Shown here: positions 5,131 through 50,597 of the stretch, piece after piece
How positions within the stretch are numbered: position 1 is the first letter of the stretch
Layout: each line of letters opens with the position of its first letter
DNA from: an uncultured bacterium
GTDB taxonomy: Bacteria > Margulisbacteria > Termititenacia > CAZZFK01
Assembly: GCA_964653455.1 (NCBI GenBank)
Contig: CAZZFK010000008.1
Span: forward strand, 21,949 to 85,948
Direction of reading: 5' to 3'
DNA length: 64,000 bases
Position numbers and translations under genes: made by a program
Notes under the pieces: generated by a model
Database searches by the model: none
Told to the model about the DNA's origin: nothing
What the model saw: only the letters and a program-made list of their open reading frames with translations

Positions 5131-5946
5131 ATGAAACACTTAGCGCACAAGGTGTATGCATTACCTGCCGGACAGAACATCGATTTTTTCCGTGCCGGCA
5201 CTGTGCTGGACCGGCAACCCTTTTTTCAACTGTCATCACCCGAGGTCCTTGAAAGAGCTTTGGGGTGTATATACACCACTGATCAGATAGTGACATACTT
5301 GGGGCGGCCGCAGTTGAGCAAGGTCCTCACGGTCTTTTGCTCATTGCTCGATGATTCACAGACCGTCCTTTTTGAACGTAAAAATAAAGAGATCGAGCGC
5401 TTCTCTGGACTGCGTCATGGGTTCGGTATCCGCTTTAGTGAGGACTATAGCACTTCTTTTCGGGCGATGAACGGAGGATCAGTGCTTTTTCCGGAAACAT
5501 ATATGCGACCGTTCCTGACAGGGACCCACGGTGCTCATGCTATGACCGCTAATTGTCTTGAATTCAGTCTTATTCTTTTGAACGCCATGAGAAAAGAGGG
5601 AATAGAGTGTTATCTCGGAGTGTATCCGACGATAGGATATCATATGTACATTTTGGCCGTGATGGATGCTGTTCTGTGTGACGTACATGTGACAAATGAA
5701 AAGGACCGTCCTTATTTTGTCAGGGAGGTTACTGATAATCCTCTTGTACAGAAGCGTATCCTTGAGCGACGGCTTTCGGATACGGATGCGCACTATTTTG
5801 TTGAGCTTTGGCGAGGTCGTATCGCACAGAGCAGAGGCGAGCTGACCTTGGCCTCAGAATACTTTCAAAGCTTGAAAAGTGATGACTGGCGTTTTAAATA
5901 TCATCTTGAGCATTTGGCAGGACTGGAGACAGGAGAGCGAGAATAA
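5131..5946 (+). CDS. Hypothetical protein with a transglutaminase-like (papain-fold) core motif
   Basis: The segment GTHGAHAMTANCLEFSLILLNAMRKEGIECYLGVYPTIGYHMYILAVMD resembles the transglutaminase-like superfamily core (G-x-C-x-x-F-…-R-x-x-G-I-x-x-R/Y-…-G-Y-…-H-…-D). There is no signal peptide. Confidence 0.4.
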   Translation: MKHLAHKVYALPAGQNIDFFRAGTVLDRQPFFQLSSPEVLERALGCIYTTDQIVTYLGRPQLSKVLTVFCSLLDDSQTVLFERKNKEIERFSGLRHGFGIRFSEDYSTSFRAMNGGSVLFPETYMRPFLTGTHGAHAMTANCLEFSLILLNAMRKEGIECYLGVYPTIGYHMYILAVMDAVLCDVHVTNEKDRPYFVREVTDNPLVQKRILERRLSDTDAHYFVELWRGRIAQSRGELTLASEYFQSLKSDDWRFKYHLEHLAGLETGERE

Positions 5947-6037
5947 CATGATCTTTCCTGTAAAAATATCTTGAATTTCCTTTCGTTCCTTTGATACAAT
6001 AAGCCTGTTCAAAATTAAACAGCCGTGGGGGTTTTAG

Positions 6038-6241
6038 ATGGCTGACGAAACACTTGAAAAAGTATCCCGTAAATTCATACATGATGTGCGCACGCCGTTA
6101 TCGGTATTGCAGATGCTGTCCGATCTGTTCGCGTCGTCCGCGCCGTCTCCCGAGGATATCGGTATCATGAAAGAAGAGATCGGCAAGATGACCGATATGA
6201 TCGCGAAGTATGCGGAGGATGTGAAAGCATTTTATCGATGA
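6038..6241 (+). CDS. Stand-alone HisKA/DHp-domain mini-protein (67 aa) with a histidine-kinase H-box and no ATPase domain
   Basis: The translation contains the H-box HDVRTPL (consensus sHElRTPL) followed by the helical DHp continuation. Only 37 nt separate its stop from the downstream response-regulator gene, leaving no room for an HATPase_c domain. GGGGG lies 8-12 nt upstream of the ATG. Confidence 0.5.
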   Translation: MADETLEKVSRKFIHDVRTPLSVLQMLSDLFASSAPSPEDIGIMKEEIGKMTDMIAKYAEDVKAFYR

Positions 6242-6299
6242 ATCTTGAAGAGGGTGGATACCCTCTTCAACGTACAATATGGGCCTAAAGGGGGAGCGC

Positions 6300-7757
6300 A
6301 TGTCCAATAAAAAGATATTGATCGTGGATGACGAGAAGAATTTTCGGAACATTTTGGGGCGTACCATCAAAGAAAGCGGCATATCCAATATAGAGATATG
6401 TGAAGCTGAGAACGCAGGAGAAGCCATGACGCTCGTTGCGCAGGAATCCCCTCATGTTGTTCTGATGGATATCCAGATGCCCGGTACTTCAGGGCTTGAG
6501 GCCTTCAAGAAGATGCGTGAGGCTAACCCAAAGCTCATCGTGGTCATGATGACGGGGGCTGGCACGACAGATAATGCGATCGAGTCGATGAAGCTCGGGG
6601 CTTTTGATTACATCACGAAACCTTTTGAGCAGAACAAGATAAAAGAGACCATCAATAAAGCCTTTGCCGCAGGTATGCTCATGGAAGAAACGGTCACCTT
6701 TTCTGAGGCGGCGGAAACAGGGAAGCTCGCGGCACGCACTATCGTGGGCATGTCCCGTCCCATGCAGGAGATCTATAAGACCATTGGGCAAGTGGCCGGC
6801 AGCACCGTTCCGGTGCTCATTACCGGTGAGTCCGGGACAGGTAAAGAGCTCGTTGCGCGTGCGATATACAATTATTCCTCCCGCAAGGACAGACCGTTCC
6901 TGGCAATCAATTGTTCGGCGATACCTGAGACCTTGCTTGAAAGTGAATTGTTCGGCTATGAAAAGGGGGCTTTTACTGGTGCGGTGGAACGACGTATCGG
7001 TAAGTTCGAGCAATGCCACGGCGGTACGATATTCCTGGATGAGATCGGTGATATGCCGGTCGTGACCCAGGCCAAGATATTGCGAGTCCTGCAGGAGGGC
7101 GAGTTCGAAAGGGTCGGCGGTACCGAGACCATCAAGGTCAATGTTCGGGTGATATCCGCTACCAACCGTGATCTTGTGGCCTTTATCCGGGAAGGACGGT
7201 TCCGCGAGGACCTGTATTATCGCTTGAACGTCGTGAACATCAAGATCCCGTCCTTACGGGAGCGGCCCGAGGATATCGCGGACATGGTGAAGTATTTTCT
7301 CAATCGTTTCAATAACGAGTTCGGGAAAGGCATAACCGATATCCCGCAGCGTACGATGGACCAGCTGATGCATTATTCGTGGCCGGGGAACGTCAGACAG
7401 CTTGAGAACACTATTAAGCGTGCAGTGGTCATGACCGTCGGCAACACGCTGCAGGTCGATTCTCTGACCGATGCCTCCGGGACCGCCGTGATCGCGGAGA
7501 GCGCTCCTGTACGTGTATCGTTAGCGGACCTCTCGTTCGAGGATGTACTTGTCCGTACGCAGGAAGAACTGCTGGCAAAGGTCCTTGCGCTCCCTGAAAA
7601 TGACGCGAACAAGGAGAATGTGCTCTCCAGGATAGAAGAGGTCCTTATACGTCGTACGCTTGCTGCCTTTAACGGTAATCAGGTCCGCACCGCACGCCTG
7701 CTGGGTATCACGCGTAATACACTGCGTTCACGCATGGCGGAGTTCGGGCTGCGTTGA
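6300..7757 (+). CDS. Sigma-54-dependent Fis-family response regulator (NtrC/FlrC-like: REC + AAA+ sigma-54 activator + HTH)
   Basis: REC domain with acidic pocket (ILIVDDE…VLMDIQMPGTSGLE), Walker A GESGTGKE, an ESELFGYEKGAFTG-type GAFTGA loop and a C-terminal Fis-type HTH (NQVRTARLLGITRNTLRSR). The start is set at ATG 6300 (MSNKKILIVDD), preceded by AAGGGGGA. Confidence 0.9.
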   Translation: MSNKKILIVDDEKNFRNILGRTIKESGISNIEICEAENAGEAMTLVAQESPHVVLMDIQMPGTSGLEAFKKMREANPKLIVVMMTGAGTTDNAIESMKLGAFDYITKPFEQNKIKETINKAFAAGMLMEETVTFSEAAETGKLAARTIVGMSRPMQEIYKTIGQVAGSTVPVLITGESGTGKELVARAIYNYSSRKDRPFLAINCSAIPETLLESELFGYEKGAFTGAVERRIGKFEQCHGGTIFLDEIGDMPVVTQAKILRVLQEGEFERVGGTETIKVNVRVISATNRDLVAFIREGRFREDLYYRLNVVNIKIPSLRERPEDIADMVKYFLNRFNNEFGKGITDIPQRTMDQLMHYSWPGNVRQLENTIKRAVVMTVGNTLQVDSLTDASGTAVIAESAPVRVSLADLSFEDVLVRTQEELLAKVLALPENDANKENVLSRIEEVLIRRTLAAFNGNQVRTARLLGITRNTLRSRMAEFGLR

Positions 7758-14096: not shown

Positions 14097-14828
14097 CTAG
14101 GTTTTAGCTGTGATGTCCAGAGCTTCTCTCAGTTCAATAGTGCCTTCATAGATGGCTTTCCCTACGATGCAGCCTGTAACGTGGGGTATCTTGCTGAGTG
14201 CGTGGATGTCCTGTATGGTCGTGACCCCTCCTGAGGCTATGATATGTATGTCCAGGGCTTGTGATAATTTACTATATAAAGGAAGAGAGGGGCCTTGCAG
14301 CATGCCGTCCTTAGCGATATCGGTGATAATTGCTGTTGTGATGCCGAGATCACTTAGTTGCTGCAATACGCTCACTGCATCGGTCTTTGTATCCTCCAGC
14401 CATCCGGATACCTTGACCTGTCCATGTTCCAGGTCCACCCCTGCTATGATATGTTCTTTAAATGAACGGGCCGCTTCTTTTAGGATCGTCTGGTCCTTGA
14501 ATATGATGCTTCCCAGTATTGCGTAGCGTATCCCTGCCTCAAGATACTCTTTGATGGTCCCTATGGTCCTGATGCCGCCGCCCACTTCAAGTTCGCATGA
14601 TGTGTGTTTGGCCATCTCTTTTATGACGCCCATATTCATGGGCTTTCCGGCTTTAGCGCCGTCAAGGTCCACGATATGAATGCGCTTTGCTCCTGCTTTT
14701 TCAAAAGAGCGGGCGATATCTATGGGATTGCTGCTGTATACGGTAGAAAGGGCATAATCCCCTTTGGTGAGCCGGACACATTGGCCTTTCAGTATGTCGA
14801 TAGCGGGAATAACAGTGAACATGTGCAC
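14097..14828 (-). CDS. hisA: 1-(5-phosphoribosyl)-5-[(5-phosphoribosylamino)methylideneamino]imidazole-4-carboxamide isomerase HisA
   Basis: N-terminus MFTVIPAIDILKGQCVRLTKGDY matches the HisA signature (IIPAlDL…G..VRL.qGdy). (beta/alpha)8 barrel length of 243 aa. Confidence 0.9.
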   Translation of the reverse strand: MHMFTVIPAIDILKGQCVRLTKGDYALSTVYSSNPIDIARSFEKAGAKRIHIVDLDGAKAGKPMNMGVIKEMAKHTSCELEVGGGIRTIGTIKEYLEAGIRYAILGSIIFKDQTILKEAARSFKEHIIAGVDLEHGQVKVSGWLEDTKTDAVSVLQQLSDLGITTAIITDIAKDGMLQGPSLPLYSKLSQALDIHIIASGGVTTIQDIHALSKIPHVTGCIVGKAIYEGTIELREALDITAKT

Positions 14829-15319
14829 ACTGTATCATGGCCGCGAGGGGAATAAAATATGGTACTTATTGCGTATCTGTTCATGCTAGAAAAGATATAG
14901 GTATATTCTTTAGTAAAAATAACGCTAGACATCCCTCTTTTTTTTCTATATAATCTTTTAAAAATAAGCTTAAGTCCGTCTGTTAAGTATTAATGTAATT
15001 TATGTTTTTCTCTGTGGGGGAGAGAAATGTTCTTATCATGTGGGGGCATGAACCCCTTCATCTTTTTTATTCAATGTTCAGATCCTGGCATGTATCATGC
15101 TGGATCAGTTTCGTTATATGCTGTGTGTATCTTCCTTGTGTTCACTGTGTTCTTCCCTGGTCCTTGTTCTTTGTCATTTGCTTCTAAAGGTCCTTCCTTA
15201 AATACACCAATATCTTTCGATACATTTTCTGCCCCTCAACCTGTCGATAATAGCTATGTCGAGGAACCACGTCGCCAAAAACTATGTATAAGATCTAAAA
15301 CAGTGGGGAATACTTTGTC

Positions 15320-18300
15320 ATGATCATGCACACACGTACTTCTGGTTTACTTAAGAACGTACTGATGACCGCAGGCATTATGCTTTGCGTGTTCGGCAGT
15401 GCTCCCGCTTTTTCTTTGGAAACTCAAAATTTAGCGTTCACTGTTTCAGGTTCTTTTTCTATTCCTGCCGGTGCTACCAGTGTCAATCTTGCCGTTACCC
15501 TTGTCGGTGCCGGCGGTAATGGCGGAGACAGATATTATTCTACCGCGCTCTATTATTCACAAGGCGGCGGCGGCGGGAGCGGATATCTTGCGACCTCAGC
15601 GAACCTTATTCCTGCAGCATCAACGTATTATGTGGTCGTCGGCAGTCCTACGAACGTTGCTGCCGGGGATGGTTCTGCGACGCAGTTACGTGCAACTTCG
15701 GCCGCAGGTACGCTCCTCCTTTCCGCGACAGGCGGCACAGGCGGTATTACCGGAACAACGGTTAAAGGCGGTAATGGCGGCGGCGGTTACGGCGGCGGTG
15801 GCGGCGGCGGTGCATATCGTTCCGGCAATATCATTACCGGCGGGACTGGCGGCGCTGGATCTGCAGGTGCGGGCGGCAGCGGTGGTGCTGCTCTGGCCGG
15901 ATCTCGCGGCGGCGGCGGCGGCGGCGGTTACGATAGTATCGGTACCCCGGCAAGCGGGGGCACTGCTTCAGGTAATGCAGGAACAGGCGGTTTTGGCGGC
16001 GGCAATGGAGGTACGGCAACATCTGTAGGCGGTACGCTGCCTTCCGGCGGATACGGTCCGTATGTGAACGGTGCCTATCGCGGCAGCGGCGGTACAGGTG
16101 CGGGTTTTTCAGGTGCATTTTCAGCGGCGAACAATAAAGGTTCTAACGGATATGCGTACATCACGATGACCTATGCGCCGGACGTGACGCCCCCTGTGCT
16201 GAACGGTGTTCCGTATTATTCCAAACCATTCTCCTCGGGCACAATGATGTTTAAATGGTATGCGGCAAGTGACGGTACCGGGGCAGGGGTGAGCGACTAT
16301 TACTATGAAATATATCGGGATGAATGTGTGACAGATAATCTTGTCAGTTCCGGTTGGACAACAGGGCTTTCGTTCACGTATTCCGGAGGAATTCCCGGTG
16401 CGACCTATTATTGCCGTGTGAAGGCGCGTGATGCCGCTCCAACGCAGAACGTCAGTACGTTCTCGGATTACAGTCAGGGGCTGTTAGTTACGAACCCTGC
16501 AATAGTGGCAAAACAGCTGACCATACTGACAATAAAACCTTCCGGTTCCCAGGCTAAAAAAGATGCCCACGGATATTATTTCAACGGCAGTTCGGCGACG
16601 GCAGGTGACGGGTATGAACTTCGTGTAAATGATACAACGTCCGGTGAGCAGGCACATCCGTCACTAGCTGCTTTAAAGAACCGTAATTTTGTTGCGGTAT
16701 GGTCGAACGCCGGTAATATTTACGGTAAGATCATATCTCCTACCGGTGATATCGTTAAGGCTGAGTTCAAAATTAATGCATATTCTCAATATGATGCGCT
16801 GAGCTGTTATCCTCGTGTGGCAGGGCTTTCCAATGGGATGTTCGTGGTCGTGTGGGAGGTCTATAACAGCAGCGGCAAGCGTGATATTTATATTCGCCGG
16901 TTCGCGGCCGATGGAACTCCGTATAGTTCAACAGCCTCCGGGTCCGGCTCGACGACAGAAGTTCAGGTGGGAAATAATGTGCCTACGCTTGATAAGCGCC
17001 AGCCTGATATCGCGGCTTTGGGCAACGGCCGGTTCGTTGTCGTATTTGATATGACCTCGGCTTCGACAGGGAAAAGCGTCATTAACAAAGCAGTATATTA
17101 TGATACAGGTTCATTGTCTTCTCCGATCCAGCTTGTGGCGATAGCTCCCATCGATGCGGCACAGGACTGTGTATATCCGAGGGTCGCTTCGTTCGGCCCG
17201 ACGAGAAATGAGTACGCAGTGGTGTGGGGGACCGAATACAGCATCTCGAATCCGCCCAATCCGCCGAATCCTGCAGGGGGCGATATCTGCATGATATCGT
17301 ACGATAATGCGAATTTTGCGACCGCAAGCGCACGGCTTGTCAATCAAACAACTTCTTTGAAACAGTTCAACCCGGTCATTACGGGCTATGCGACCGGTTT
17401 TGCCGTGGCCTGGGCCAGCGAATCGGGGTCTGATATCGGGAATGACGGGTATTATTTTTATTATCGTAACTGGGGTATTTCCGGTTATCAAGCCAATGAT
17501 ACCTGGTCCAATGTCTTTTTCAGGCAATACGATGTGTATGGGGTTTCAACAAATGCTCAACAGATCGTTGAGCAGGGATCCAGGCTCACCAGTTATCTCG
17601 ATCCGGCGATCAATGCTATTGAATCGACCGCTTCTATTAACGGTATGATCGCTTTGTGTTATCTGAAAACTCAGGATTCAGAGGCTCTTCTGTACCAAAC
17701 GACATATACGATACCTGCGCATACTTCTGAAGTGTTCGCCAGATTCTACAGTCTGGAAGGTTCCTCCTTGTCGGATACCAGCACGACCATCAATACCTAT
17801 ACCGCAGGCATACAGGATGGTATTGCGCTGGCCTCTATGGGGGCAGTGGACAAGAGTTATTTAATGACTGCCTGGAACAGTGCCGGACAGGACGGGTCAG
17901 GTCTTGGAGTATTTGCGCGCCAATATGTCATCGGACCTCGGGTATTGAATCTTACCCGCGGGAAATCGTATGCGACCATACAAGCGGCATTGGACGACGC
18001 GGAGAATAATGATCAGATAGTGCTGATAGAAGGTGTCTTTAATTTAGATGAACCCTTGATCTTCAAGCCGGGGCTTAAAGTGACCTTGCGTGCTTATACT
18101 GAACAAGGTGTGAGCCGGGCTAATACTATTATCTCCGGGCAGTATGTGTCGCGGCTCATGGAGTTCGGTGCAGGGGTGAGCGTCAGTATCGAGAATCTGA
18201 CCTTGGTGCAGGGGGCTGTAGAAGAAACTAACGGGTACTTTGGTGCGGTTGTTTCCTGTAATTCCAGCGCAAAGTCTGAGCTCTTTTTCCGTAATGTTTT

Positions 18301-21300
18301 GTTCAAAGATAATTATGCAGCACAGGGCGGGGGTGTGATGTTCCTTCAGGGCGCAACAAGGGCCAAGGCTCCGGTGGTTCTCCTGGAAACATGCGAATTC
18401 AGCAATAATTACGCGGCAGACCTGGGCGGCAGTGCGATATATGCGGTCAATGCGAGCGTTACGGTCGACAGATGCTTGTTCAACGGAAATAATTCCACCG
18501 CTGCCGGCGGTGCTATCTATTCGCTGGGGTCGTATATATACGCGTTCAATTCGACCTTCCTTTCCAATAAAGCGTCCACCTATGGCGGCGTGTATTATGG
18601 AGGAGAGGACCCGACCTCCGGTCAGGACGGTGAACTTCTCGCGGAGCGTTGCACGTTCGCCCGCAACAGTGTGGCCAGCACGGGACGCGGCGATGTTCTT
18701 TATTTGGCGAACAATACCGCGTTCACGGCCCGCAATTGTCTGTTCCATCATAATTACTTGTCCACTGCGCAGACGTATGCCATGGTGATCAATACGAGCA
18801 GCAGGGCATATTTCTATAATTCCACGTTCTCTGCGCACAGAGGGGTCGCTCTGTGGACCGCAGGGGCTAACTCTATTTTTCAAGCGTATAATACGTTGTT
18901 CACGGATTGCGGGCCGGCCACATCAATGTTCGCAGGGACAGCACTGGATGCCATCGTAGAACACTGCAGCGTTGATGAGGCGTTGCCTTCAAAGATCGGG
19001 ACGACCGGGACCATAGTCGGCGATCCCAAGATAGCGTTCTCTTCCTATCCATTCCTGGTCAAGGGTTCGCCCTGTGTGGATTCAGGTATCTATCTAGCGG
19101 ATGTCACTGTCGATATCGAGGCAGTCGCTCGTCCTCAGGGAGTATCTTATGATATCGGTGCCTATGAAGGGGCACGACTTTTTGTATCCGATCTGTACCC
19201 GGGAAATTCCTTCGCCGCTCCGCAAGATCTGCAGATACAGGCAGTGCTCTGGATGGTCTCCTGTAATGCGCAGTATCCTCTGACGGTGACAATAAATGAT
19301 CTTAACGGTGCTACCAAGGACGCGACGCTGGTCTTCTTGTCCACGGAAACGTTATATCAGACCGATAAATATCAAGGGATCATAGTCCGGGTCGACGACA
19401 CGCATTCGAGGCTCCTGGTATATGCCAAGGACAGTTCGTTCCTGGAGAACGGCGATCATTTCAGTGTGCAGATCAATTCCGTCCATACACCGCCCCGCGG
19501 AGAGCTCTATCGGACCGATGATCCGGAACCTTTCTTTAATGATGAGCAGATGGAATTCTTTGTGGCAGGTGTCCCGTTCCTGAGCGAATGGTATGCGGGA
19601 GGGCTTACGCGGAACAATACGGTCTCCTATAACAGTTCAGTCGGCAATGGTGCGGATATCGATCAGGACGGGTATCCGGACCTGATCGTCGGTGACGCAG
19701 GCTTTAACGGCGAGACCGGTCAGGCGTTCTTGTATTATGGCGGTCCTGAACAGGAACGCGATGTGAAAGCGGTCTTTACGGGTGTGACCCCTAACTCACG
19801 GTTCGGGGCTATGGTCGGTATGGCCTATATCAATAAGGACGGGTATGGGGATGTGCTCATCGGGGCTCCTGGCGAGAAAAAGATCTACCTGTATTACGGA
19901 ACAAAGGCTTTGGCAGGAGCGTCCGCGCTGGATACGGAGCACCCGTCCTTTGTCATCACGGCGCCGGATGACAGTGCGTATGGGTTCGGCGAGAAGTTCG
20001 ATGTCGGCGATGTGAACGGTGACGGCTACGATGATATCGTGGTCGCGGTCCCTTCATATAATTCCGACGCGGGTGCGGTGTTCGTGTATAACGGCAGGAG
20101 CCTGCTGGCCGGCGGAAAGAGTTCCGCAGCGACCTACAGAACTCTTTCAGGCAGCGGGCAGGGTTTTGCCCAGGCGGCGATAGTCGGCGGTGATCTTGAT
20201 CTGGACGGTGTCGAAGATATCGTTGTCGGTCTTCCGGACGGCGGTACGGATAAAGCAGGTCTGGCATACGTCTACTTTGGTGCGGCGGGTACCCCTGATT
20301 TCTTTACGGCAGGGTCTCTGATGACCAAAACCCTGCAGGCGCAGGTGCCGGCAGCAAATGATCATTTCGGGTATTCACTGGCGAAAGGGAAAGATATCAA
20401 CCATGATAATTTTGCGGATATCCTGGTCGGCAAGTACACGGAACCGGGAGATTCGGGGTGCGCCTGGGTCGTATATGGCGGGGTACGCAGTGATATCGGC
20501 AGTTCCGTCAAGGTACGGACCATCGTTCAGCCGCGGGATATTGAGCGTGATAATGAGAATGTTTCTGCGAACAGCAGTGCTCAGCAGTTCGGTATCACGG
20601 TCGCCTCCGCAGGAGACCTTGACGGTGACGGCTATGATGATTTCATGGTCGGTGCACCGTATGCCGGCAGTACCGGGATGGGCATGATCTTCGTATATAT
20701 GGGGGGTAAGCTCATCGATGAAAGTTTTGATGCGTACAATTTCAACGGTTATGTGATAGCCGGTCATGATGCCGGAGCGCACACCGGGGCCTCGCTCTTG
20801 AACATCCAGGATTATAACGCTGACGGATATGATGAAGTGGCGTTCAATGACCGCTTTGCAGGCAAGAACACGGTGCATGTCATGTATAACGCGGCTGCGA
20901 CCGATATTGCCGCGCCGGTCATCACCTATGCGATGCCTCGGACCGGGATGGCGGGTGTTCCGGAAAATCCGACATTTAATATCACTATCTATGACAGAGG
21001 GAAGAGCGGCTTGAACCTGGCCTCGATCGAAGTTCGTTTGTATCCTCGCGGCATGGGAGAGGCGGATTCTCTTGAAGCCTATCTTCAGAGGAAGATCATC
21101 AACAGTGCGGGACTTGATACTGCCGGCAGTACCGGGTTCAATTCAGCGCAGGTCAAAGATGCATATATGGTCCTGACCCTTGCTTCCGGCGTGACGGTAC
21201 CTATTGCCGCTGGTATTCCGGTCGATGACTATAATGATGCTCTGGGGATGGTAAAGGCGATCAGCATATATTTCACCTTGAACGACGTTTTGGAGAGTTC

Positions 21301-24300
21301 GGAAGGCTATGAGCTTGAGGTCAAAGCTCAGGATTGGGGTGCGGTGCTCCCTGCGTATCAGTATACCGGGCAATACTTTTCCGGTCTTGCGCTGACCCCG
21401 AACATTATTTCCTTCTCGACGAACCAGAAACTTTTTGTGTCCGGGAATACCGGCACGAACGTCAAGTCCATCGGTGATTTCAACGGGGACGGTCTTGATG
21501 ATGTTGCGGTCTTTACTCCGGGCGCGACCTACGGTGAGATATATAATACGACCAATGCGTCGTGGTTCGTCGGTATCCCGGCGCCGGGGACCAATGCCAA
21601 TAAAGGCTATGTATTGCTCTATTTCGGCGGGCCGGACATCAAGTTCGATACACCGAACGTGATCCTGGTCGGCGGTGATACGTCCGGTACTTTTGCGACG
21701 GATGTGTTCGGTATCCCGCAAGTGACCCTGACGCATGCAGATTCCGGGGATGTGTACCATGATGTGGTCGTTCTCGAAGGGAAGGCCGTGAACGATTCAG
21801 GATATTCCCGTGTGCATGTGTTCAGCGGACAGGCCATGGATAAGACCGATACTCCGGTCATAATGTCCAACGGTGTACCGAGCCAGGTCTCGAAGAACGT
21901 GTATATCGACAGGGGTATACCGTTGTATGACATCAATGGCGATGATTATCCGGATATTGCCGTTTCAGACGGCGGTACTTCCAATGCCGTGTACGTGCTC
22001 TACGGCAGCGGTACGGGTTTCCAGACGAACAAGAGCGTGATCAGCGGTCCTGCGGGGTCGGCTTTCGGGTCCGCGCTGGCCGAGTGCGGACGTACGCTGG
22101 TGATCGGGGCTCCGAACGCTTCGTACGGTGATTTTGAATATCGCGGGGCCGTCGGTGTGGTCGCGAACAATACCGACGAAACGCTGCTCCCGGATAAGAT
22201 CGTGGCTGTCGGAGAGATGTGGCTCGGGGCCCGTGCCGGCGCTCATTTCGGCGCGTCCCTGGCGAGCGGGTATTTCAACGACACATATACCAGTCCGAAC
22301 ACGGTGGCGACCGGCGCCTACCCGGATATCGCGATCGGTGCGCCCAATGATGATCAGTTCGCAGAGAACGCCGGCAGTGTCACCATCTTCTTTGGCAAGA
22401 GCGCTCTGTTCACGCCTTTACCGGTAGCGACTCCCGATGTCGTTCTGCTTCCGGAGAGCATTGATTCCGAGTTCGGGACCCGGCTTGCCGCGGCTAAATA
22501 TCTGAGCACACCCGCTCATTATAAGCGGTGGGCGCTGGGGTATGACCGGTACAATAAGGATTATTTTGATAATTATGATGACCTCATTGTCTCGGCCCGT
22601 ACGTATGATAATGCGATGGCCTCAACGACCGGTAACGGCAAGATATATATCTATGCGGGCGGAACGACGCTTTCTCAGACGGCGGACGCGGGGTACTTGG
22701 GAGGAGCACGTGAGGAGCTCTCACTCATCACGAACGGCGGAGATGTGCTCGGTATGAACAGTGATTCACTGTTCGTGATCAAAGCCTCGGAAGGTGCAGG
22801 CCAGTTCTATCTTCTGCAGAACCGTGATATTCCTGATACGGTGTATCCGACCTTCGTTCGTGTCTATCCGCCGAACGATTCGTACGATGTTTCTGTCGAT
22901 TCCGATATCATATTCGAGGTGTCCGATGCTTCCGGTATCTTGAAGGAGAGCCTGATCGTGTACCGGTACCGCAAGGATTACACGGATACGAGCAGGGAGA
23001 TCGTCAAGGCCGGCGTGGTCGCCGATAAGTCCCAGACCAATCCGATCAAGGAATATGAACTTGTCTCTGCCGATATCGGCAGCAGCGGCACGACGGTACG
23101 GTTCACGTTGAGCCCTCATCCGCAGAATTATGAACCGCTGCCCGGTGAATATCCGGCGGGGCAATGGACCGAGAGCGAACCGGTCAATGTGGACCTGTAT
23201 ATCGGCGATAAACGTACGGTGTGGGTCAGCGATACTAAGAAGAACATCCAGTCGCTTATGACGAAGTTGAACTATGGCTTTATGACCAAGTTCAAGGCCA
23301 ATGAGGCGCAAAAGATACAGCTGTTGGGTGAAGAGGATATGCCGAACACCTATTTTGGTTCTTCGATCGCTTCCGTGGGTGATGTGAACGCGGACGGATA
23401 TACTGATTTTGTCATCGGTGAATACGGGAATAATCAATACGGGCCGTACTCAGGGAAAGCATATCTGTACCTTGGCAGCGGAGATTTCTATGAACTGGCC
23501 CGTGCCGACCTGACCCTGACCTTGGGGTCGGGGACAGCCTCTTCCCGTTTTGGGTATAAAGTGGCGCCTGCCGGTGATATGAACAATGACGGGTATGATG
23601 ATGTTGCGGTAACGGCCCTTAATTCCGGGTCTACGGGCGCGGAAGTGTTCGTTCTGTTCGGTGGTCCGGGCGTTATTTCCGGGCTGAACAGCGCACGCTG
23701 GGACCTTACGTTCCTGAACACGTATGCGACGGTCGTGCAGGGGGCGTACCCTCAGGACGGCTTCGGAACGGCGGTCTATGGTAACGGCGATATCAACGGT
23801 GACGGCTATGACGACCTGCTCATCGGTGCGCCGTACACGGATATAGACAGTAAAGAAGAGGCCGGCCGTGTCTATGTTATCCTGGGGCGCAAATATGAAT
23901 CATCCTATGGTCAAACGGGAGCCCGTCATTTAAATCCGGATAATGAAGGCGGGGCCCGAGGTCCGATACGGGCCACAGAGCTCGCGGAGCTCTCCGCGGA
24001 CACGCTCTCCTCTTTCGATCCGTCGGATACGAACGGGACGCTGCGCGGTTTTTGTATCAGCGGTACGACGGCCTATGAACGGTTCGGCTCTGCGGTCATG
24101 AGCGGTGTGAACATCAACGGCGATACGGCGGTCGTTGCCGTTAATAATGCCGCGAACGTCAATGCGACCAAGAACACCGAGGTCTCTGAACTGCTTATCG
24201 GTGCGCCGGGTACGTCACATGCCAAAGGTGCGGTACATGTCTATTCGTTCAATACCGGCACAAAGGTCCTCTCCCGCGCGACGCTGCTCACCGGGGAAGC

Positions 24301-27300
24301 GGAGGGTGATCAGTTCGGTTCCTCGCTTACCTCTATGGGTGATATGACCAATGACCTTGAACTGCTCGGAACTGAATACGAGGAATTTGCCGTCGGTGCT
24401 CCCTACAATAACGCGAACGGTACGGATGCGGGTTCTGCCTACCTGTATCTGGGCAAGAGCGATTGTGCTTCCGTGACCAGCGCGTATCTTGCCTTCTACG
24501 GGCAGAACGCCGGCGATGCGTTCGGGTATGCGCTCGCGAATGTCGGCAATGTGGATAACGATCAATACGGGAATAATGATCTTGCTATATCTGCACCGTT
24601 CAATGCCCGCGGCGGGAAGAACGCCGGCCGCGTGTATATTTTTGGTTCAGCCCTTTCAAGTGAAAAACCCCATACCCTGGTCATGGATAAAATGGCGGAT
24701 TATGCCAACGAAGGTGAGGCCGGATATGTGTTCGGTTATGATGTCTCGGGGTTGGGCGACCTTGACGGTGATTTTGTGCCGGAATATCTCATCGGTGCAC
24801 CGTCCTACGCTTCTAATAATATCGAGAACCGGGGACGGGTGTTCTTGTATACGAACCCGGATGATTTCGGTCCCACACTCAATCTTGCCTGGCTGAACCC
24901 TCAGGATGGTTCGACGGGCAATAAGAAAGTTCATTCCTATTTCGACGAGACCCTATCGGCGACCGTCAATATACCTTTGACAATACGGCTTTATGCCAAA
25001 GATAATCGTATCGTCTATATCAACGGGTCCAGTGTTGAACTGCGCGGTGAGGACGAGAACAAAGCATATACCTACCGTTTCAGTAATCCTGTGACCGGTG
25101 TGAATTATTACACGATCCATAATCGTAAAATCGTCGAGTTCTTTGTCGTCCATCCGTACTATCGTTACGGTGAAATGGTCGATGTTACGGCCAATATCAT
25201 CGATGTGTGCGGCAATAAGCTGGGGGCGAACATGGCGCTTACGCCGAACTATATGGGCGCGCCGTATACGTTCCGTTTCCAGGTAGAGGAGAATCCGTAT
25301 GATGGACCCTCCAAACTGGTCGCCAAGGTCAATCCCGTCCCGGACACAAACGGTGCCGGTCTGTACGGAGATTCCAAGCTGTACACGGATAATCCGAATA
25401 TCTCCGTGGCCCTTGCTGCGCGCGATATGAAAGGCGGGGTCTGCTATGTGAATTTCGGTATGGGCAGCCTGGATATCATGCAGGTCGTCGATAATATACC
25501 GGTCAGCCAGCTGTCCGGTCTTGCGGGCGCCGTGACGGCTGATATGTTCGATGATGACGGCTCCACCGCTATCACGTTCAATATTAATGTGAGCGCCAAT
25601 AATTTCAAGGTCTATAATCCATATTCGTCCTTTGGCCGTGCGACCTTGTCCTCGGGCGACGGCGTGAAGACCTTCGCGTTCCAGGCCTGGGATATGAGCC
25701 TGAACCCGAGCGAAGTGGTCACGGTCAGTATCATATTGGATACTCTTCCTCCGACGATATCTGAACGCTGCCCGACACCGGGAAGCACAGGTGTCGCGAA
25801 CCAGGTGAGCGTGTCGTTCACGGCGAGCGACGCAGGTTCCGGCATCAATCTCGAGAATCTTTCGGTCGTGGTGGCGCGTGGTGCTGACAGATATCAATAT
25901 TTTGTCCCATACGGCCTGCAGTCAGTGGTCTTTGCTCCGTTCACCGAGAATTGTTCGACGAACACTTCTGTGGCGGATTATTTTGCTCAGATCAATAACG
26001 GTTCGCTGCAGGATGGTATCGGTTGCATCAGTACAGAAGGTATCGCCGATCTTTCGGCGGGGACCATGCTGCGCAGCGGATCCTCCGTGTATAACGATGG
26101 GGTGATCTCTCTGACCCTTTCCGGTTTTGATTATACGCAGGATGCTCTTGAACTCGCCTTCCGGTCGGATATAACGGTCGAAGGTATCGTTGAACAAGGA
26201 TATGCACTGAGCCTGGAACGGGTCTCAGGTCAGACCTACAGCAGGTTGAGCCTGAAAAAAGTCCTGCCGAAGTCCACTGTGGTCCTGGCGACCAGAAACC
26301 TGACCACGGTCGATTCCTCACAGACCGCGCCGCGCCTGCAAGTGGTCATGAACGGATCGTATCTGAAAGTGTTCTGGAATAATGAGCTCAAGATCGAAAT
26401 GCAGGATAATACATATATCACCGGGCGTGTCGGTATAGCGGCCCCGGCAGGTAAGCACATCGCTTTGGACCAGATAGACATTGTGCGGCTGCCGGCGATA
26501 ACGATCACTGCCGGAGATGACGCGGATACCCAGCTGGTGCATCAGAACAATTTTGAGAACGACACTGCCGAGTTCACGAACGGGACCGATGTCGCTGCGG
26601 GGCGCGTGGATGATCCGGATACGGACGGCATAGAGCCGATCAATCAAGTGCTGCGGCTCACATCCTCTCCGACAACGATCAGCTTCTATACGGATGCTTC
26701 GAGCATACCCGGGCTTGCGTCAGACCATGTGATCAACTTTAAATATCTTGTTTCCAATGCGGGCTCCGCCGGTACGGTGTTCTTCCGTGTACAGGACCAG
26801 AACAACGGTTATATCCTGAGCCTGGAAGGCAGTACGGTGCGGTGGGGCAAGCTGGTCAATGGGACATATTACGACAGTGAATCGGGCTGGTGCGCCACTT
26901 CCGATATCACGCTGGCTTCGCGGACCAATGCGGTGAACGAGTGGAGCTCCTATACCTTGAAGGTCAACGGTACCAAGTTCACCCTGCTGCAGGATGCCGT
27001 AGTATTGAGCAGTGTGACGGACGTGGATGCCGCTCATCCGGCGTTCATCAGCGGCGGGTTCGGCTTTGCGGCGATCGGGGGCAATATCATCTATCTCGAT
27101 GACCTGTCCGCATCGAATATACTGAAGAACAAACTGTATGCGACCATATCGCTCCCGTATTTTAACTACGAGGACGAGATCTCGATATCCATCAATATTG
27201 AAGATATGACCGCGGCGGATTATCCCACACATCGTATCGTCGACCACTTCTCTTTCACGGTATCTCCGGACTATCGGGCTCCGTACGATCCGTCCGTTGT

Positions 27301-30300
27301 TATCGATGACGGGGCCGAATATTCTCGCCTGATGGTCTTTGTTTCCGCGAACGCCGTTGATGATATGGGCGTCGTGGATATCTTTATTTCCGGTGATGTG
27401 ACGAACAATGGCCTTACAGAAGGCATGACAACGGTGGATGCCTGGGTCTCGGCGAACGCAGAGGACTATGCGATCTATCTTGATCCGTACCTTTCAGAAG
27501 GGTATCGCAATCTTGAACCGTCTGACGGTAAACGTATCGTGTCGGTCAAGTTCCGCGATGCTCAAGGCAATGTCAGCGCGATAGCGACGGATGATATCCT
27601 CTTGTCCTATTTCTCGACGGAAGGACGTCCGGTCATCAGCAAGTTCTTCATCAATGGTGCTACCAGGGCGGCCGCCGAGAAGGCCAAATTCACATCAAGC
27701 AATACGGTAGCGCTCTATATCGACGGGTTCGATGTGGAAGGTGTTACTCCGACCACGGAGGGCAAGATCGTTGCCTATAGGCTTATGGGGCATATCACTG
27801 CCAATACCCAGGTGGAACCGGGTAAATGGTATCCTTATCCTGCGACCAAGATCATTCCTGCCGTCGCGCTCGCGACCAGTGAGGGTATCCGTACCATCGC
27901 CATGCAGTTCCTTGATCGTGATTATATTACCGCCAATGCGACTGACAGCGATGTCGTTGTTCAATTAGCGGCCATCAATGATCAGACGGCATCTATCAAT
28001 AGTCTTGGACGCACAAGTTCCTGGAACTATGCCTCGATCACTTTTGACCGGACCCCGCCGTTCTTCAATTTCTGGCTCAATAATCCGGTGAATATGTATC
28101 GTTCTTCATACTTTTGCCGTTCTGAAGGGAAATTGAGCGGTTCATGGAAAGCTTCGGACACATATTCAGGTATAGCCCGGTATGATTATTGTATCTATGA
28201 GGTCTCTCAGAACACAGGCTGGGTGACGGCAAGCCTTTCATATGAGACCTCGACGAACTATACGCTGATCCAGGCCTGGAAGACCGTGCCGGCAGCGCAG
28301 ATAATCAATGACCTGGCAACGGTCACATCGAACCTTGCGCTTGAGTCAGGTAAGGACGGTTATTGTTTTGTGGTCAACGCTATCGACGGTGCAGGCAATG
28401 TGGCCCAGGTCACGACCAATCTGTTGGCCGTTGATATAACCAAGCCGTATGCGACGGTGTACTATGATTCCAGTGCGCTATTATCCCGCCCCGTATTCGA
28501 TATCGATTTTGCGGATGACAGAGCGGGCTTGTACCAGGTGTCCGTCGCGTTGAACAATAAATTCGGTGCACAGCGCATCATTACGAACATCAATGAAGAT
28601 GAGGTCGGCATACCGAGCAAGAACGGTGCGTACCGTACCCTGTACAGCAAGAACTGGCGGCTGGATGATGATATCTGGGCCGATCTGGCTGAAGGCGAGA
28701 ATACGCTCTATTTCAAGATAACCGATGCGGCAGGCAATGTGGTCTATCCGTCCGACAGCGACTCGACTGGAGAAACAAGCTATACGTTCATTAAAGACAC
28801 GCTGGCGCCTACAGGTACGGCCCGTTTTAACGGCGGAGCGCTGTATACGAAGAACCTGGTTACGACGGTGAACGTTGATTTCTCCAGTGAAGGCTATTTC
28901 GGTATGGTATATATGACCAGGTATCCCGTGTCAGAGGATATGTTCCTTGAGGACCACAGCTTTGAGGATGCCGGTGATCTTGGGGTCCTCCCGAGCTGGA
29001 ACATGGTCATGAACGGGCTTTCCTCCTCGCAGGTATCGATGAGCGTGAAATTGTTCGGTTCCACCGCCACGACCAAGAATACCGCCTGTTCCATAAAGGA
29101 CGGTCTGTACGGTCTGGTCGTCAGCTTCAATGTCTCCACGCAGGGGAATGAGTCCGCGAAGCTCGGCGGGTGGGCTTTACAGAAACAGGTGAACATTGCC
29201 ACCGCGAACGTTACCTACAATTTCCACGGGTTCGTGAACGTGGCCAATATCTCGGGTATCGCCACCGGGTCGGAATGGATCGTGGCGGACGTGAGCTATT
29301 ATGATTCAACGCTCGGTCAGACGGTCCGGGTGGTCTGTCCCGATACCATATGGAACGGCGAAGCGGACAGCAAGAGCGGCTGGAACATGTTCCAGGGGAA
29401 TATATTCATCCCGAACAACAGCGAGGTCACGCTCCGGTTCACGTTCGGCGCGAAAACCTGGCAGAATACGAACGGCTATATCGTACTCGATGATATCAAC
29501 TTTATACCGGGTGGCGACCTGGTCGTGACCGAGAACAAGAGCATCTCGTTCCTGTATAACTTGGAATCGGGAGATGACGGGTATCGCAAGATCTATGTTG
29601 CTGCCCGCGATCAGGCCGGCAACTGGAAGAACAGCGAAAAGTCCATTTTCTATGACACCACACCGCCTTCCTTTAATGCGCCGAACTGCGGTGTACAGTT
29701 GTATACCATCTCGGGCAACGGTACATATCAAAAAAATAATACCAAACTGATGTGCGGGTATCGTGCCGACGACGGGCTCGGATCAGGTGTATCATTCTAT
29801 ACCTATACGATCGATGTCAGTATGATGGTCACTGCGGACGCGGACGGTGACCTGGTAGAGCCGGTCTGGACAGAGTACAAGAGCGTATCCGGGAAAACGG
29901 CAGTGCTGACCACCGATGATATTCCGACCAGACGCAATACGTCATACCGCTATCGTGTCCGTGCGGTGGATGCTCTGGGCAATACCAGTAATTATACGAC
30001 GAGCAATGTCGTCATCGTCGATGTGGATGCGCCGCAAAGCTTTGTGACGGTCTCGGCATCTCTGCCGGACGGTATCAATCCGCAGGGGTCCGGCTGGTAC
30101 AAGGATGGTCCGATCCTTGTGACGATATCCGCCGTTGACCATTCACGGGTCTTCAATACACTGTACGATCTGCCGACGCGCAATGGCTGCGGAGTCTCGA
30201 CAATTAATTATGTGAAAGGGTATGTACGTGACGGGGTGGCCGTTCTTGAACCGACCGTGAGCGTGACGATAGTATCCCCCACACAGGAAGTGACGGTCGC

Positions 30301-33300
30301 GATTGATCATGCAGGGCAGAACCTGTTCGGGTATTGGGCATCGGACGCGCTGGGGTGGACAGAAACGCCGAACTGGGTCAATTCCGAGAATCTCCATATT
30401 GATAAGGACGCGCCGGTCGTCACGAGCAACCTGCATATATACAGCTATCCGAACGCGAAGCGTTGGTTCAGTGCCGATAATCTTCCGGTGGAATATACCC
30501 TGGACGATCAGTTACGCGCCCATGTCGTGAGCGGGAACCTGCTGCATCGGGCCGATCGTCTCGGTGACGGTACATCCAGACTGTATTACAAGGTCGATGA
30601 TAATCCGACCGGCAATCTGTACGCTGATCGGCGCGAATTAGGGTCCATCTTCCCGTTCGCGGTCCTGCCGACATTGAACGGCGAGATCACCGGCTGGGAT
30701 AAGACCGCGGCCGCCGGCCTCAGTCCGTACGTGGAGCCGTTCACGCTGCGCAGTGCCGACGGCGTACTGCCTCCGCTCGACGGTGAAGGCGTGCATATCG
30801 TGTATTATTGGGCGGAAGATAAGTATGAACATGTTTCAACGGTGAATTTTGTCGATGATATACGCATCGATAACGGCAAGCCTGAGCTCAGTCTTAATAT
30901 GGGCGGCAGCTTCCAGACCGTATGGTGCACGGACCCTGCCGGCATTCAGGCCATTATCGAGGTCAGGGATTTCTATGAAACGCCGGTCTCTTATAATTCC
31001 GCATGGTATCGCGGTCAAATGCCTCCTTCAGGCTGGATGATCGATGAAGGGGAGAAGACCATAATCCCGGGTTCGGGTATCAAGAGCTTCTGGTACCAGC
31101 TGAACTCAGAAATACCGACCGAGGTCACGTTCCCCGGGGAAGAAGATCCGCTCATCGATTATCTCGAGTATCGTTTCACGAAGACCTTCGTGGTACCGAT
31201 CATGACCAACGGGTATAACGTACTGAGATATATCATTACGGATAATGCCTATAATGTGGCGGACATACATTCCGGGCATCTGGAGTGGCATTCGGACCTT
31301 CGTTCCTGGATATCGGACTCCGATACGGGCATGATCAGGTACATACGTCTGGACAATGAACCGCCGACGGCAGCTGCAGTGCTCCTGAACCGGTATAAGG
31401 CCGCCCCGTTATATACGAACAACCGGTTGGTCTCCTGTAACCTGCAAGCTCAGGATTTCGGTATCGGCGTGAAATACGCGATGATCTACGGCTATGATGA
31501 TTCCATACCCGATGCGGAGAATAATCCGTACGCCTGGACGGCACTTGAGCCGACGATCAATGTTCTGTACCAGTTCTTTACGACCAATACCTGGAACATG
31601 ATCGCGGATACGGATGCGGACCGGTATTGGGATTTCGATAACAATCGCAGCCCGCGTGCGATCGTTGATATGCATAAGTACATATATCTCGAGGATAGGG
31701 ACGGAACAAAGAACGTGCAGGCGGTCTTCGCCGATGATTTCGGCATGCCGTATGAGAGCGTGTCTGCCGATGAAGAATGCGCGTACGTGACATATCAGTC
31801 CTGGAGGGATAATGTGTCCGCGAACGGACAATATCCCGTGTTCACCACGGCGGAGAAAGCACGTCTTGATGCGATCCCGTTCGAGAAGTGGCCGACACGG
31901 GCGGTGTACATCGCGCGCATGCCTGCGATAGAGAACCATGCCAGCGTGACCGCGAGCACGCTCATCATCCTCGATCGTCAGATCGTGGCGGGCAGTGTCA
32001 CGTCCAGTACCGTATTACAGACCAAATATGGCCCGTATGTGACCACCCGGAACGTTAAGCTGTCCATCTCGCATGATGATCCCTCAGAGCTGAGCGGCAT
32101 CGACGCCGTGATGATCTATGGCGACCTTGCGGAGAACGGGAAGAACAATGTATGGCTGCCGTACACCTCCGGCAGCAGCCAGGATATCACGGTGCTCATC
32201 CCTCAGGCGGAGTACGATTCTGTCACTATCGACCTGTACGTGGTCTGGCGCGATCGTGCGGGCAATATCAGCACGCCGGTCACGATGAGCTTCCAATATG
32301 AAACACCTATGCAGGCGGATAATCCGCAGTATCGTATCAATTTCCCGACCGCGGGATGGTATATGACCACACGTAATGTCTCGGTGCTCCTGAATTTCCC
32401 GGGAGCGAACTATGTACACTTTGTCGGCGATGTGGATAGCACGTTCAGTACCTTGAATTACAGAACGAACGTTTCCTGCATGCTGTCCGAAGGTGATGGC
32501 CTGAAGGCCATGGGTATCTGGCTCGAGGACCGGCTGATCTCGACCATCACCATGACCCAGAACTTCCTGCTCGACCGCTCTGCACCGTCCGGTACGGACA
32601 ATGTGAACACCGGTATCATCTATGAGGACCAGAACGGTGCGACCTTCACGCTTTCCTTCTCTGATGTACCGACACCCGGCATCCAGGTCTCCGGCATCAA
32701 GAAGATCTATTATCAGATCAATAGTGAGGCCGTGGTCACCGTGGAAGTGCGTGATGCTTCCGGCTATTATTCGGCGCCGACCGCGAACAAGATCACGGTC
32801 ACTATCCGCAATAAGAGCGCGCATAATCAGTTGAAGTATTGGGCGGAAGATATGGCCGGGAATATATCCGCGGTCACTGCGATAAGCGGTATCAAGGTAA
32901 ATACGCTGCCGATAGCGGTACCGCAGCTCAGTCCGGTCACGGTCAATCGGTACACGGATGTGCTCCCCGGAGAGGACGTGTATTACGTGAACAGCAGGAC
33001 CGTGACCTTCAATTTCTCCGCGGTGAATGCGGACCGCATGTGGCTCTATGGCGATATCGTTGAGGACGGAACGGGACCTGTGGTCATCACGGTCGGCGGC
33101 GTCACCAAGCGTTCCGTTCAATTGACCGGCGCCGAGAATGTCGTACAGCATGTACGTGTCGTCTATGGCGATGATTTCTCGAGCATCGGAGGTAAGACCA
33201 TCTCGACCACGCTCAATATCATCCTTGATACGGTAGCTCCGGCCAGCCCGTCCCTTGTGTCCCTGTCGGCGCAGGTCAGCGCGTCAATATACTGTACCTC

Positions 33301-34306: not shown

Positions 34307-34504
34307 ATGTATAGGGCCGTATTTCTTTTGCTAAGCCCCTTTTTTAGTAAATCCCAGGTATAAAAAGTCGTTCAGGTGGGCATACCTACAGAGGATAGGC
34401 GAACATGAAAATGGACCAGATAAAAGGCATACATTTTTTTAGTGTTCAATGACGATAGTATGGGTGTACAGCACCATACATGCATTTCTTTTGTGGGGGA
34501 AGAA

Positions 34505-35754: not shown

Positions 35755-36381
35755 TTATTTTTTTGTATGTTCGATGAAGTTCTTCAGTATCATCAATCCC
35801 CACGGGCTGCTTTTTTCCGGATGGAACTGGGTCGCGAAAACAGTGCCGTGTTCAATGGCTGCCGTGAACGGGATGCCGTACGAGCTTTGTCCGCTGACGA
35901 TACTTGTGTCATCCGGTCTTGCGTAGTACGAGTGCACGAAATAAAAGAACGCGTTATCGGGTATCCCTTTGAACAGGACCCCCGGTCTTTTTTGTTCGAC
36001 CTGGTTCCAGCCCATGTGGGGTATCGGTAGGCGTTCCGTGGCAGTATCGCCGAAGCAGAACAGGGGGACAGTCCCTTTTATAAGCCCGAGCCCCGCCGTA
36101 TCCGGAGACTCGTCCCCGCGCTCAAAAAGGACCTGCAGCCCGAGGCATATGCCCAAGAACGGTGTTCCCTGCGCGACCTTTTCTTTGATGATCGATATCA
36201 GGCCGTACTCCTTGAGGTTCTTCATGGCCGCACCGAAGGCCCCGACGCCCGGCAGGATCAGTGCGTCAGCGCTTTCTATGTCCTTGGGACTGGATGAGAT
36301 GAGCGCGGAATATCCGAGCTTTTCAATGCTTTTTTGCACGCTGCGGAGATTACCCATGCCGTAGTCGATTATCGTCAACAT
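35755..36381 (-). CDS. hisH: Imidazole glycerol phosphate synthase glutamine amidotransferase subunit HisH
   Basis: MLTIIDYGMGNLRSVQKSIEKLGY plus a class-I GATase triad (GICLGLQ…, C-terminal H/E). 208 aa. Confidence 0.9.
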   Translation of the reverse strand: MLTIIDYGMGNLRSVQKSIEKLGYSALISSSPKDIESADALILPGVGAFGAAMKNLKEYGLISIIKEKVAQGTPFLGICLGLQVLFERGDESPDTAGLGLIKGTVPLFCFGDTATERLPIPHMGWNQVEQKRPGVLFKGIPDNAFFYFVHSYYARPDDTSIVSGQSSYGIPFTAAIEHGTVFATQFHPEKSSPWGLMILKNFIEHTKK

Positions 36382-45683: not shown

Positions 45684-45694
45684 TAAGGAGCAGT

Positions 45695-48168: not shown

Positions 48169-48171
48169 TCC

Positions 48172-49653: not shown

Positions 49654-49659
49654 GCCGCC

Positions 49660-50586: not shown

Positions 50587-50597
50587 CGGGGGGCCGT

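Follow-up and report, generated by a model that had tools for sequence, protein, structure and literature searches.

A 67-residue protein consisting of a histidine kinase DHp domain is a conserved neighbour of a sigma-54-dependent response regulator in Margulisiibacteriota

We analysed a stretch of 64,000 nucleotides (hereafter the window) from contig CAZZFK010000008.1 of an uncultured bacterium of the Margulisbacteria, in which an open reading frame (ORF) of 67 codons, starting with ATG and occupying positions 6038-6241 of the forward strand, encodes a stand-alone dimerization and histidine phosphotransfer domain (DHp, HisKA), with the product MADETLEKVSRKFIHDVRTPLSVLQMLSDLFASSAPSPEDIGIMKEEIGKMTDMIAKYAEDVKAFYR. 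This mini-gene lies directly upstream of the gene for an NtrC-family, sigma-54-dependent response regulator. As judged from its sequence, the mini-protein is a true HisKA DHp domain that has every element of the catalytic motif but no further domain. Based on our results, we think it probable that the Margulisiibacteria possess a natural two-component system in which the 'kinase' has been cut to a DHp hairpin of ~70 amino acids, and which works either without a kinase or as a split or relay system. As to mechanism, our tentative preference is for a dimeric DHp domain that docks on the receiver domain (REC) and acts as the dedicated phosphatase of the co-expressed regulator.

The identity of the mini-protein rests on several lines of evidence. 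Its HisKA H-box is complete (H15-D-V-R-T-P), with the phospho-acceptor His15 encoded at 6080-6082 and followed by D16 (H+1), T19 (H+4) and P20 (H+5). HisKA (PF00512) is the only Pfam family that it matches at E<=1, over residues 15-56 (E=1e-4), with a score of 22.7 bits that lies below the Pfam gathering score of 26.9. An AlphaFold2 model built with eight homologues as input is a helical hairpin (helices at residues 2-33 and 38-66; mean pLDDT 92.5), that is, the two antiparallel helices and short loop of a HisKA DHp domain. A Foldseek search of this model against the PDB, which cannot tell helical hairpins apart, had a best E-value of 0.13 and matched generic hairpins (type III secretion system needle proteins, small terminase, designed bundles). 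In a profile-profile comparison with hhalign, the family described below pairs, at 94.5% probability, with residues 248-307 of 461 of a full-length kinase, which form its DHp segment, and the closest sequence match of the family among solved structures is ZraS (E=1.3e-3), the kinase of an NtrC-family regulator. When the H-box peptide pattern was used to scan metagenomes, a single mini-protein locus came back together with 14 ordinary full-length kinases, and we therefore regard the H-box as that of an ordinary HisKA domain.

The other parts of a histidine kinase are absent from the protein. It has no sensor, input or transmembrane region, with only 14 residues N-terminal to the His, all within helix 1, and no HATPase_c (CA) domain C-terminal to the DHp domain, as the protein stops at residue 67. 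With neither a CA domain nor a sensor, it falls outside the definition of a histidine kinase (EC 2.7.13.3), and ATP-dependent autophosphorylation is not expected because the CA domain is absent.

The mini-protein belongs to a family of similarly short proteins. A word-indexed search yielded three homologues of 66-67 amino acids. A profile of those three, run exhaustively by HMMER against 1.84 billion cluster representatives (E<=1e-3), gave six matches, all of 67-81 amino acids and none of them a full-length kinase. Searching with a profile of eight sequences found 67 homologues, all of 59-86 amino acids; a further, more diverged member of 65 amino acids was found upstream of a 53%-identical regulator in locus L100. 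The outcome that would have made the ORF a remnant, namely that in relatives it is the N-terminal part of a full-length kinase, was encountered in none of these proteins. All organism names attached to the matches are Candidatus Margulisbacteria or Margulisiibacteriota, including Candidatus Termititenax aidoneus and Candidatus T. persephonae; the Margulisiibacteriota are the sister phylum of Cyanobacteria/Melainabacteria. Taken individually, 66 of the 67 members match HisKA at E<=1e-3 (best 2.3e-10), the member from the window doing so below the gathering score, and the only other Pfam match at this threshold is that of one member to GAS. The genes are labelled in databases as 'hypothetical protein', 'histidine kinase' or 'signal transduction histidine kinase', of which the last two are misleading. 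In one locus (L094, 98-319), the deposited protein P0007 has an in-frame TGA read as Trp, while under translation table 11 the ORF ends five codons sooner, which reflects either an alternative genetic code or a gene-caller setting.

Many members of the family are just 27-30% identical to the mini-protein of the window, and their catalytic positions are nonetheless nearly constant. The phospho-acceptor His and the H+5 Pro are found in 67/67 members, the H+1 Asp, the H+3 Arg and the H+4 Thr/Asn each in 66/67, and in helix 2 the same is true of Glu47 (67/67) and Lys50 (66/67). When the mini-gene of the window is compared with its two nearest relatives (L001 and L002), synonymous sites are near saturation (dS>1; pS, the proportion of synonymous differences, 0.63-0.65) and non-synonymous changes are few, giving a ratio of non-synonymous to synonymous substitution rates (dN/dS) of 0.06-0.13. 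By these comparative measures the mini-gene is a real gene under purifying selection and no pseudogene.

The mini-gene has a functional tie to the NtrC-family regulator encoded next to it. DNA was available for 13 distinct loci (the window, L001, L002, L086, L087, L089, L094, L095, L096, L097, L099, L100 and L101), and in 13/13 the next gene upstream of the orthologous regulator, on the same strand, is the mini-gene, with a spacing between -19 and +73 nt. A 4-nt overlap of the pair occurs in five of these loci (L095, L096, L097, L099 and L100), and in the window the start codon of the regulator follows the stop codon of the mini-gene by 58 nt. For at least 16 further mini-DHp matches, the longest contig has the same size as that of a regulator match. 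Complete or nearly complete genomes with the module include GCA_003864455.1 (Candidatus Termititenax aidoneus) and GCA_042562865.1. No other gene is consistently linked to the mini-gene among the loci compared, the downstream genes varying from locus to locus. The observation that an original prediction had made on the window alone, of a 67-residue DHp protein with an H-box and a sigma-54 response regulator encoded 58 nt further on, is confirmed in full. The protein is also recognised by the HisKA profile, and both the ORF, now with more than 67 homologues, and its place beside the regulator are conserved in relatives.

The regulator has 485 amino acids and matches the Pfam families Response_reg (7.7e-30), Sigma54_activat (4.4e-74), AAA_lid_14 and HTH_8 (6.5e-12). 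A second in-frame ATG lies upstream, at 6279; ATG 6300 is the most plausible start because it is preceded by GGGGGAG and because homologues begin with MSSKKILIVDD or similar. Across five aligned regulator orthologues there is no variation at D10, D11, the phospho-acceptor D57 (codon 6468-6470 in the window), T85, K107, Walker A or Walker B, and all have kept the GAFTGA loop (GSFTGA in L089). Since the phospho-acceptor residues, both Walker motifs and the loop have been kept, these regulators, which are 56-58% identical across the clade, are expected to be phosphorylation-dependent sigma-54 activators. The names on the closest regulators are likewise Margulisiibacteriota, apart from one partial match of 371 amino acids labelled Patescibacteria.

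We assign the regulator to no specific subfamily or regulon, because its score is under every NCBIfam equivalog cut-off (best ntrC, 478.6 vs 558.6). A flagellar (FlgR/FlbD-like) identity was considered as a possibility in view of flhB and flhA close by in the window and in L089; the NCBIfam scores favour generic NtrC/AtoC models, none of them at cut-off. Scanning the window for the sigma-54 promoter consensus gave 10 matches vs 24 expected by chance, and with matches below the chance expectation no regulon can be inferred. No more than a lead, as matches of its quality are fewer in the window than chance would give, is a candidate sigma-54 promoter, TGGCATGTATCATGCT, at 15086-15101, with GG-N10-GC spacing and ~220 nt upstream of a giant ORF. 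It should also be noted that in the loci of two distant family members, L097 (9416-11042) and L099 (7724-9344), the opposite strand carries an ammonium transporter gene (amtB) paired with glnB (P-II), 0.1-2 kb beyond the regulator in the downstream direction; from this pair, which is absent from the window, the regulator might have a function related to nitrogen.

The two proteins also carry traces of a possible contact surface. In helix alpha1 of the DHp domain, positions H+7 (T/S, 66/67), H+11 (M, 61/67) and H+12 (L, 59/67), which we take to correspond to specificity residues of EnvZ, are conserved, and the loci with a divergent DHp alpha1 (L086 and L100) also have a divergent REC alpha1. 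Because these positions are conserved and the two helices diverge together, the sequences weakly suggest canonical docking of DHp alpha1 on REC alpha1, while shared ancestry could explain the joint divergence in L086 and L100.

We sought the missing kinase domains in the surrounding DNA using a hidden Markov model built from the DHp and CA regions of 51 NtrB-like kinases. It detected no HATPase_c-like ORF in any frame of the window or within the 16 kb of L089 that were scanned, and the sole match in the window was the mini-ORF itself, on its DHp positions, in agreement with the earlier argument that no ATPase domain is hidden behind a frameshift. Neither was a CA-domain gene found in the 12-16-kb flanks of L089, L096, L097, L099 and L100, nor a candidate upstream REC domain or hybrid kinase in the flanks examined. 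A scan of genome contigs with the regulator returned no match of >50% identity, and its matches were usable as an out-group. Among 80 such loci of other phyla (regulators <=50% identical), 51 have a kinase of >300 amino acids directly upstream of the regulator, and a short DHp-only ORF was found in 0/80. The simplest history would be that an ancestral NtrB/ZraS-like kinase lost its sensor and ATPase in the Margulisiibacteriota lineage and kept its DHp domain.

Based on these findings, we propose the following scheme. The mini-protein would descend from a kinase of the NtrB/ZraS/AtoS type, usually encoded upstream of such regulators, through loss of the sensor and the CA domain, and its gene would share a transcript with that of the sigma-54 regulator, with translational coupling of the two in many lineages. 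We infer that the isolated DHp hairpin dimerises into a four-helix bundle, docks on the REC domain of the regulator via the canonical alpha1 interface, and so sets the phosphorylation state of Asp57. Its net activity would be dephosphorylation of the phosphorylated response regulator (RR~P) through the H-D-x-x-T/N motif, with phosphoryl input from elsewhere, either acetyl phosphate or an unlinked kinase. Acetyl phosphate phosphorylates regulators of the NtrC type, such as E. coli NtrC and Borrelia Rrp2. We favour dephosphorylation because a protein that lacks a CA domain should not autophosphorylate, and because the NtrB and EnvZ DHp domains, taken in isolation, have been reported to dephosphorylate their regulators. 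For these fragments, PMC3510030 describes RR~P phosphatase activity in vitro and in vivo, with a constitutive phosphatase phenotype in vivo and a strong enhancement of the activity by the CA domain; the sufficiency of the fragments is credited there to Zhu et al. 2000 and Kramer & Weiss 1999. The H+4 T/N was reported to be required exclusively for HisKA phosphatase activity, and acetyl phosphate was used experimentally to phosphorylate CrdA (PMC3510030). The conserved His itself has been implicated in dephosphorylation (PMC5727384), and a figure legend of the same paper describes a DHp-only construct of HK853 studied by nuclear magnetic resonance in complex with BeF3-RR468. A phosphatase was not among the mechanisms listed in the original prediction, which named phosphotransfer shuttles and heterodimerising kinase inhibitors; its identification of the protein and its link to the regulator have held, and the mechanism that we find most likely is a different one.

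A number of points speak against a phosphatase. The mini-gene stands first in the operon and has a good Shine-Dalgarno run, so its product is probably at least about as abundant as the regulator, and a constitutive phosphatase of such abundance, if neither weak nor regulated, would leave the regulator in a permanent off state. A phosphodonor was not identified. The phosphatase activity of DHp-only proteins is weak without the CA domain (PMC3510030), and the EnvZ DHp domain alone had 'no apparent phosphatase activity' in mammalian cells (PMC8971529). Finally, the acidic H+1 residue of CrdS is needed for kinase, not phosphatase, activity (PMC3510030), and an Asp kept at this position in all members but one fits better with a His that becomes phosphorylated.

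Phosphorylation of the His is the essence of a relay or split kinase, in which His15 would be phosphorylated in trans and the phosphoryl group passed on to Asp57 of the regulator. The donor could be a CA domain, either on a separately encoded protein or in a full-length kinase that forms heterodimers with the mini-protein, or else a hybrid kinase's REC domain (the logic of Spo0B and ChpT), and the mini-protein may also act as a phosphatase while unphosphorylated. We consider this a real possibility and nearly as likely as the phosphatase reading. In addition to the H+1 Asp and the His present in every member, it is favoured by an H-box that cannot be distinguished from those of working kinases, and by the invariant phospho-acceptor site of the regulator, so that some donor must phosphorylate this protein. 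There is also a laboratory precedent, as Park, Saha and Inouye reportedly found in 1998 that domain A of EnvZ is phosphorylated in trans by domain B. However, no gene for a CA domain is present in the window or the flanks searched, and the regulator is the only gene consistently linked to the mini-gene. Moreover, we know of no natural system made of a free DHp and a free CA domain, and none was found in the literature searched. The conservation of the His is also explained by its role in the phosphatase reaction (PMC5727384).

It is also conceivable, but in our view improbable, that the mini-protein is a non-catalytic binder, either a steric anti-activator that holds the REC domain or a decoy that poisons a full-length kinase by heterodimerisation. 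Small helical hairpins are known to regulate two-component proteins by binding, such as Sda on KinA and FliX on FlbD, and operon linkage with the regulator suits a stoichiometric binder. A binder gives no reason, however, for the near-invariant H, D (H+1), R (H+3), T/N (H+4) and P (H+5) in proteins of ~27-30% identity, and invariance of the whole H-box would argue against a purely steric inhibitor; a decoy for kinases is further disfavoured by linkage of the gene to the regulator and not to any kinase. The last reading, a pseudogene remnant or spurious ORF left as a functionless, decayed fragment of the regulator's former kinase, draws on the full-length kinase that holds the same position in other phyla and on the sub-threshold HisKA score of the window member, but is effectively refuted by the conservation data, namely the low dN/dS, the constant length of >67 orthologues across the phylum, the conserved start, Shine-Dalgarno run and promoter, the 4-nt overlap with the regulator in five loci, the lack of any remains of a CA domain and the spacer of 58 nt to the next gene.

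Several putative expression signals surround the mini-gene (Table 1). The promoter elements are also present in L001 and L002, and the G-rich Shine-Dalgarno-like run is shared by L001, L002 and L096. Between the window and L001, the promoter and 5'-leader (5971-6037) show ~89% identity, far above the ~37% at synonymous sites of the mini-ORF, of which 63% differ. The imperfect palindrome that lies near the predicted transcription start is present once in the window, and 0/100 shuffles gave as many matches; it is possibly an operator, perhaps for autoregulation, or an element of the 5' untranslated region. As RNA it folds no better than shuffled sequence. We do not claim it as a recurring binding site of the regulator, as it occurs nowhere else in the window and could not be recognised in L096 and L100, which are more distant. 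Between the two genes, the RNA of 6236-6305 has a predicted folding energy of -25.3 kcal/mol (z=-2.96). L001, which like the window has a long spacer, carries a stem-loop of unrelated sequence at the same position after the mini-ORF stop (1451-1499, z=-2.05), and none was found in L002 or in the lineages with overlapping genes. Such a structure may tune read-through or translation of the regulator, and thereby set the ratio of mini-protein to regulator.

Table 1. Features of the mini-DHp and regulator module, in coordinates of the window
Feature	Position	Strand	Basis or remark
Sigma-70-like promoter: TTGAAT, 18-nt spacer, TACAAT, TG extended -10	5971..6000	+	Promoter scan
Imperfect palindrome CTGTTCAAAATTAAACAG near predicted transcription start	6005..6022	.	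Arms kept in L001 and L002
Shine-Dalgarno-like run GGGGG, 6 nt upstream of the mini-gene ATG	6027..6031	+	Sequence
Coding sequence of stand-alone DHp (HisKA) mini-protein	6038..6241	+	67 amino acids; Pfam, homologues, AlphaFold2, dN/dS
H-box FIHDVRTPLSVLQ	6074..6112	+	Family alignment
Perfect 11-bp stem-loop TTGAAGAGGGT-GGAT-ACCCTCTTCAA, without U-tract, between the two genes	6245..6270	+	RNA fold
NtrC-family sigma-54-dependent response regulator (REC, AAA+, HTH_8)	6300..7757	+	Pfam, NCBIfam

The gene neighbourhood differs among the loci. Between pyrD and the mini-gene, the window holds an ORF of 271 amino acids (5131-5946) without a Pfam or NCBIfam match, of which only the C-terminal 47 amino acids are left in L001 (1006-1149) and which is absent from L002. 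From this pattern, the ORF appears to be a recently gained or lost gene outside the conserved module. A frameshift or fusion joining it to the mini-gene was rejected, since a conserved promoter separates the two genes and the ORF is missing or truncated in relatives that keep the mini-gene. The original description of the surroundings as rich in flagellar and pilus genes is only loosely right. Upstream of the module and on the same strand, flhB and flhA are found at 17-2745; they are also near the module, in divergent orientation, in the distant relative L089 (3822-7088), and not in L096, L097, L099 or L100. Their proximity may be left over from older synteny, or it may reflect a functional connection with the control of flagellar genes. 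The pilus genes form a complete-looking Tad/Flp locus far downstream (44898-53661), with RcpC/CpaB, a secretin, a CpaE-like ParA ATPase, a CpaF T2SSE ATPase, two TadB/C T2SSF proteins and a TadE/G-like protein.

On its minus strand, the window carries hisF (14097-14828), hisH (35755-36381) and a ROK-family gene (36461-37411). The three are contiguous in the syntenic relative L100 (11131-13453), whereas in the window ~21 kb separate hisF from hisH. These ~21 kb hold a giant ORF of 6306 amino acids (15320-34240, +) and a UPF0164-like gene (34442-35698), and by comparison with L100 they resemble a large insertion specific to the lineage.

What defines two-component signalling is a kinase in which a DHp domain is combined with a CA domain, and a kinase reduced to its DHp domain throughout a phylum would be unexpected for specialists of these systems. 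If the phosphatase reading is true, acetyl phosphate or cross-talk charges a sigma-54 activator whose dedicated phosphatase is the mini-DHp protein; if the split kinase or relay is true, an unlinked CA or REC domain charges the mini-DHp protein in trans, and no smaller natural protein for histidine phosphotransfer would be known. In either case, the module would represent an undescribed two-component architecture that is fixed across the whole phylum. So far, the physiological competence of an isolated DHp domain has been addressed on truncations of EnvZ and NtrB only, with conflicting results (PMC3510030 vs PMC8971529). A natural minimal system of ~70 amino acids plus a receiver could serve to separate the chemistry of the DHp domain from the effects of the CA domain, and to study the control of a response regulator that has no cognate kinase. 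It could also improve gene annotation, and such a module may be of use in synthetic biology.

Neither natural stand-alone DHp proteins nor this module of the Margulisiibacteriota were found in the literature searched, which does not prove their absence elsewhere, and nothing relevant was found in the literature on signalling in Margulisbacteria and Termititenax. The mini-protein can nevertheless be set beside several known systems. Like the histidine phosphotransfer (HPt) proteins LuxU, ShpA and Ypd1, which are small, all-helical, phosphorylated on a His and devoid of a kinase domain, it carries a candidate phospho-His on a small helical scaffold; HPt proteins, however, are monomeric four-helix bundles of the family PF01627, whereas the model of the mini-protein has two helices, and it has no Hpt match at E<=1. 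The Spo0E-family phosphatases are helical hairpins of ~56-85 amino acids that dephosphorylate a specific response regulator. The mini-protein resembles them by analogy in size, fold class and proposed role and is not homologous to them: it has no Spo0E-like Pfam match at E<=1, and the Spo0E motif, SQELD, differs.

Similar in logic are Spo0B of Bacillus and ChpT of Caulobacter, dimeric DHp-like hairpins that form a four-helix bundle, have no kinase activity and shuttle phosphate on a His to a regulator. The mini-protein shares with them the DHp-like hairpin with a phosphorylatable His; Spo0B and ChpT, however, have ~190-250 amino acids, a C-terminal CA-like alpha/beta domain and no canonical HisKA H-box, while the mini-protein is the hairpin alone. 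The operons of NtrB-NtrC, ZraS-ZraR and AtoS-AtoC have the same gene order, with the DHp gene followed by that of a sigma-54 regulator of the same architecture, but their kinases comprise ~350-750 amino acids, compared with 67 in a protein without sensor, PAS or HATPase_c domain. The nearest counterparts are 'domain A' of EnvZ (residues 223-289, 67 amino acids), whose activity in isolation is disputed in a heterologous system (PMC8971529), and the H domain of NtrB. Both are the same domain, of the same size and with the same H-E/D-x-x-T/N-P motif, and the NtrB fragment also has a partner of the same class, NtrC. These fragments are laboratory truncations, whereas the mini-protein is the product of a natural gene, fixed and conserved across a phylum.

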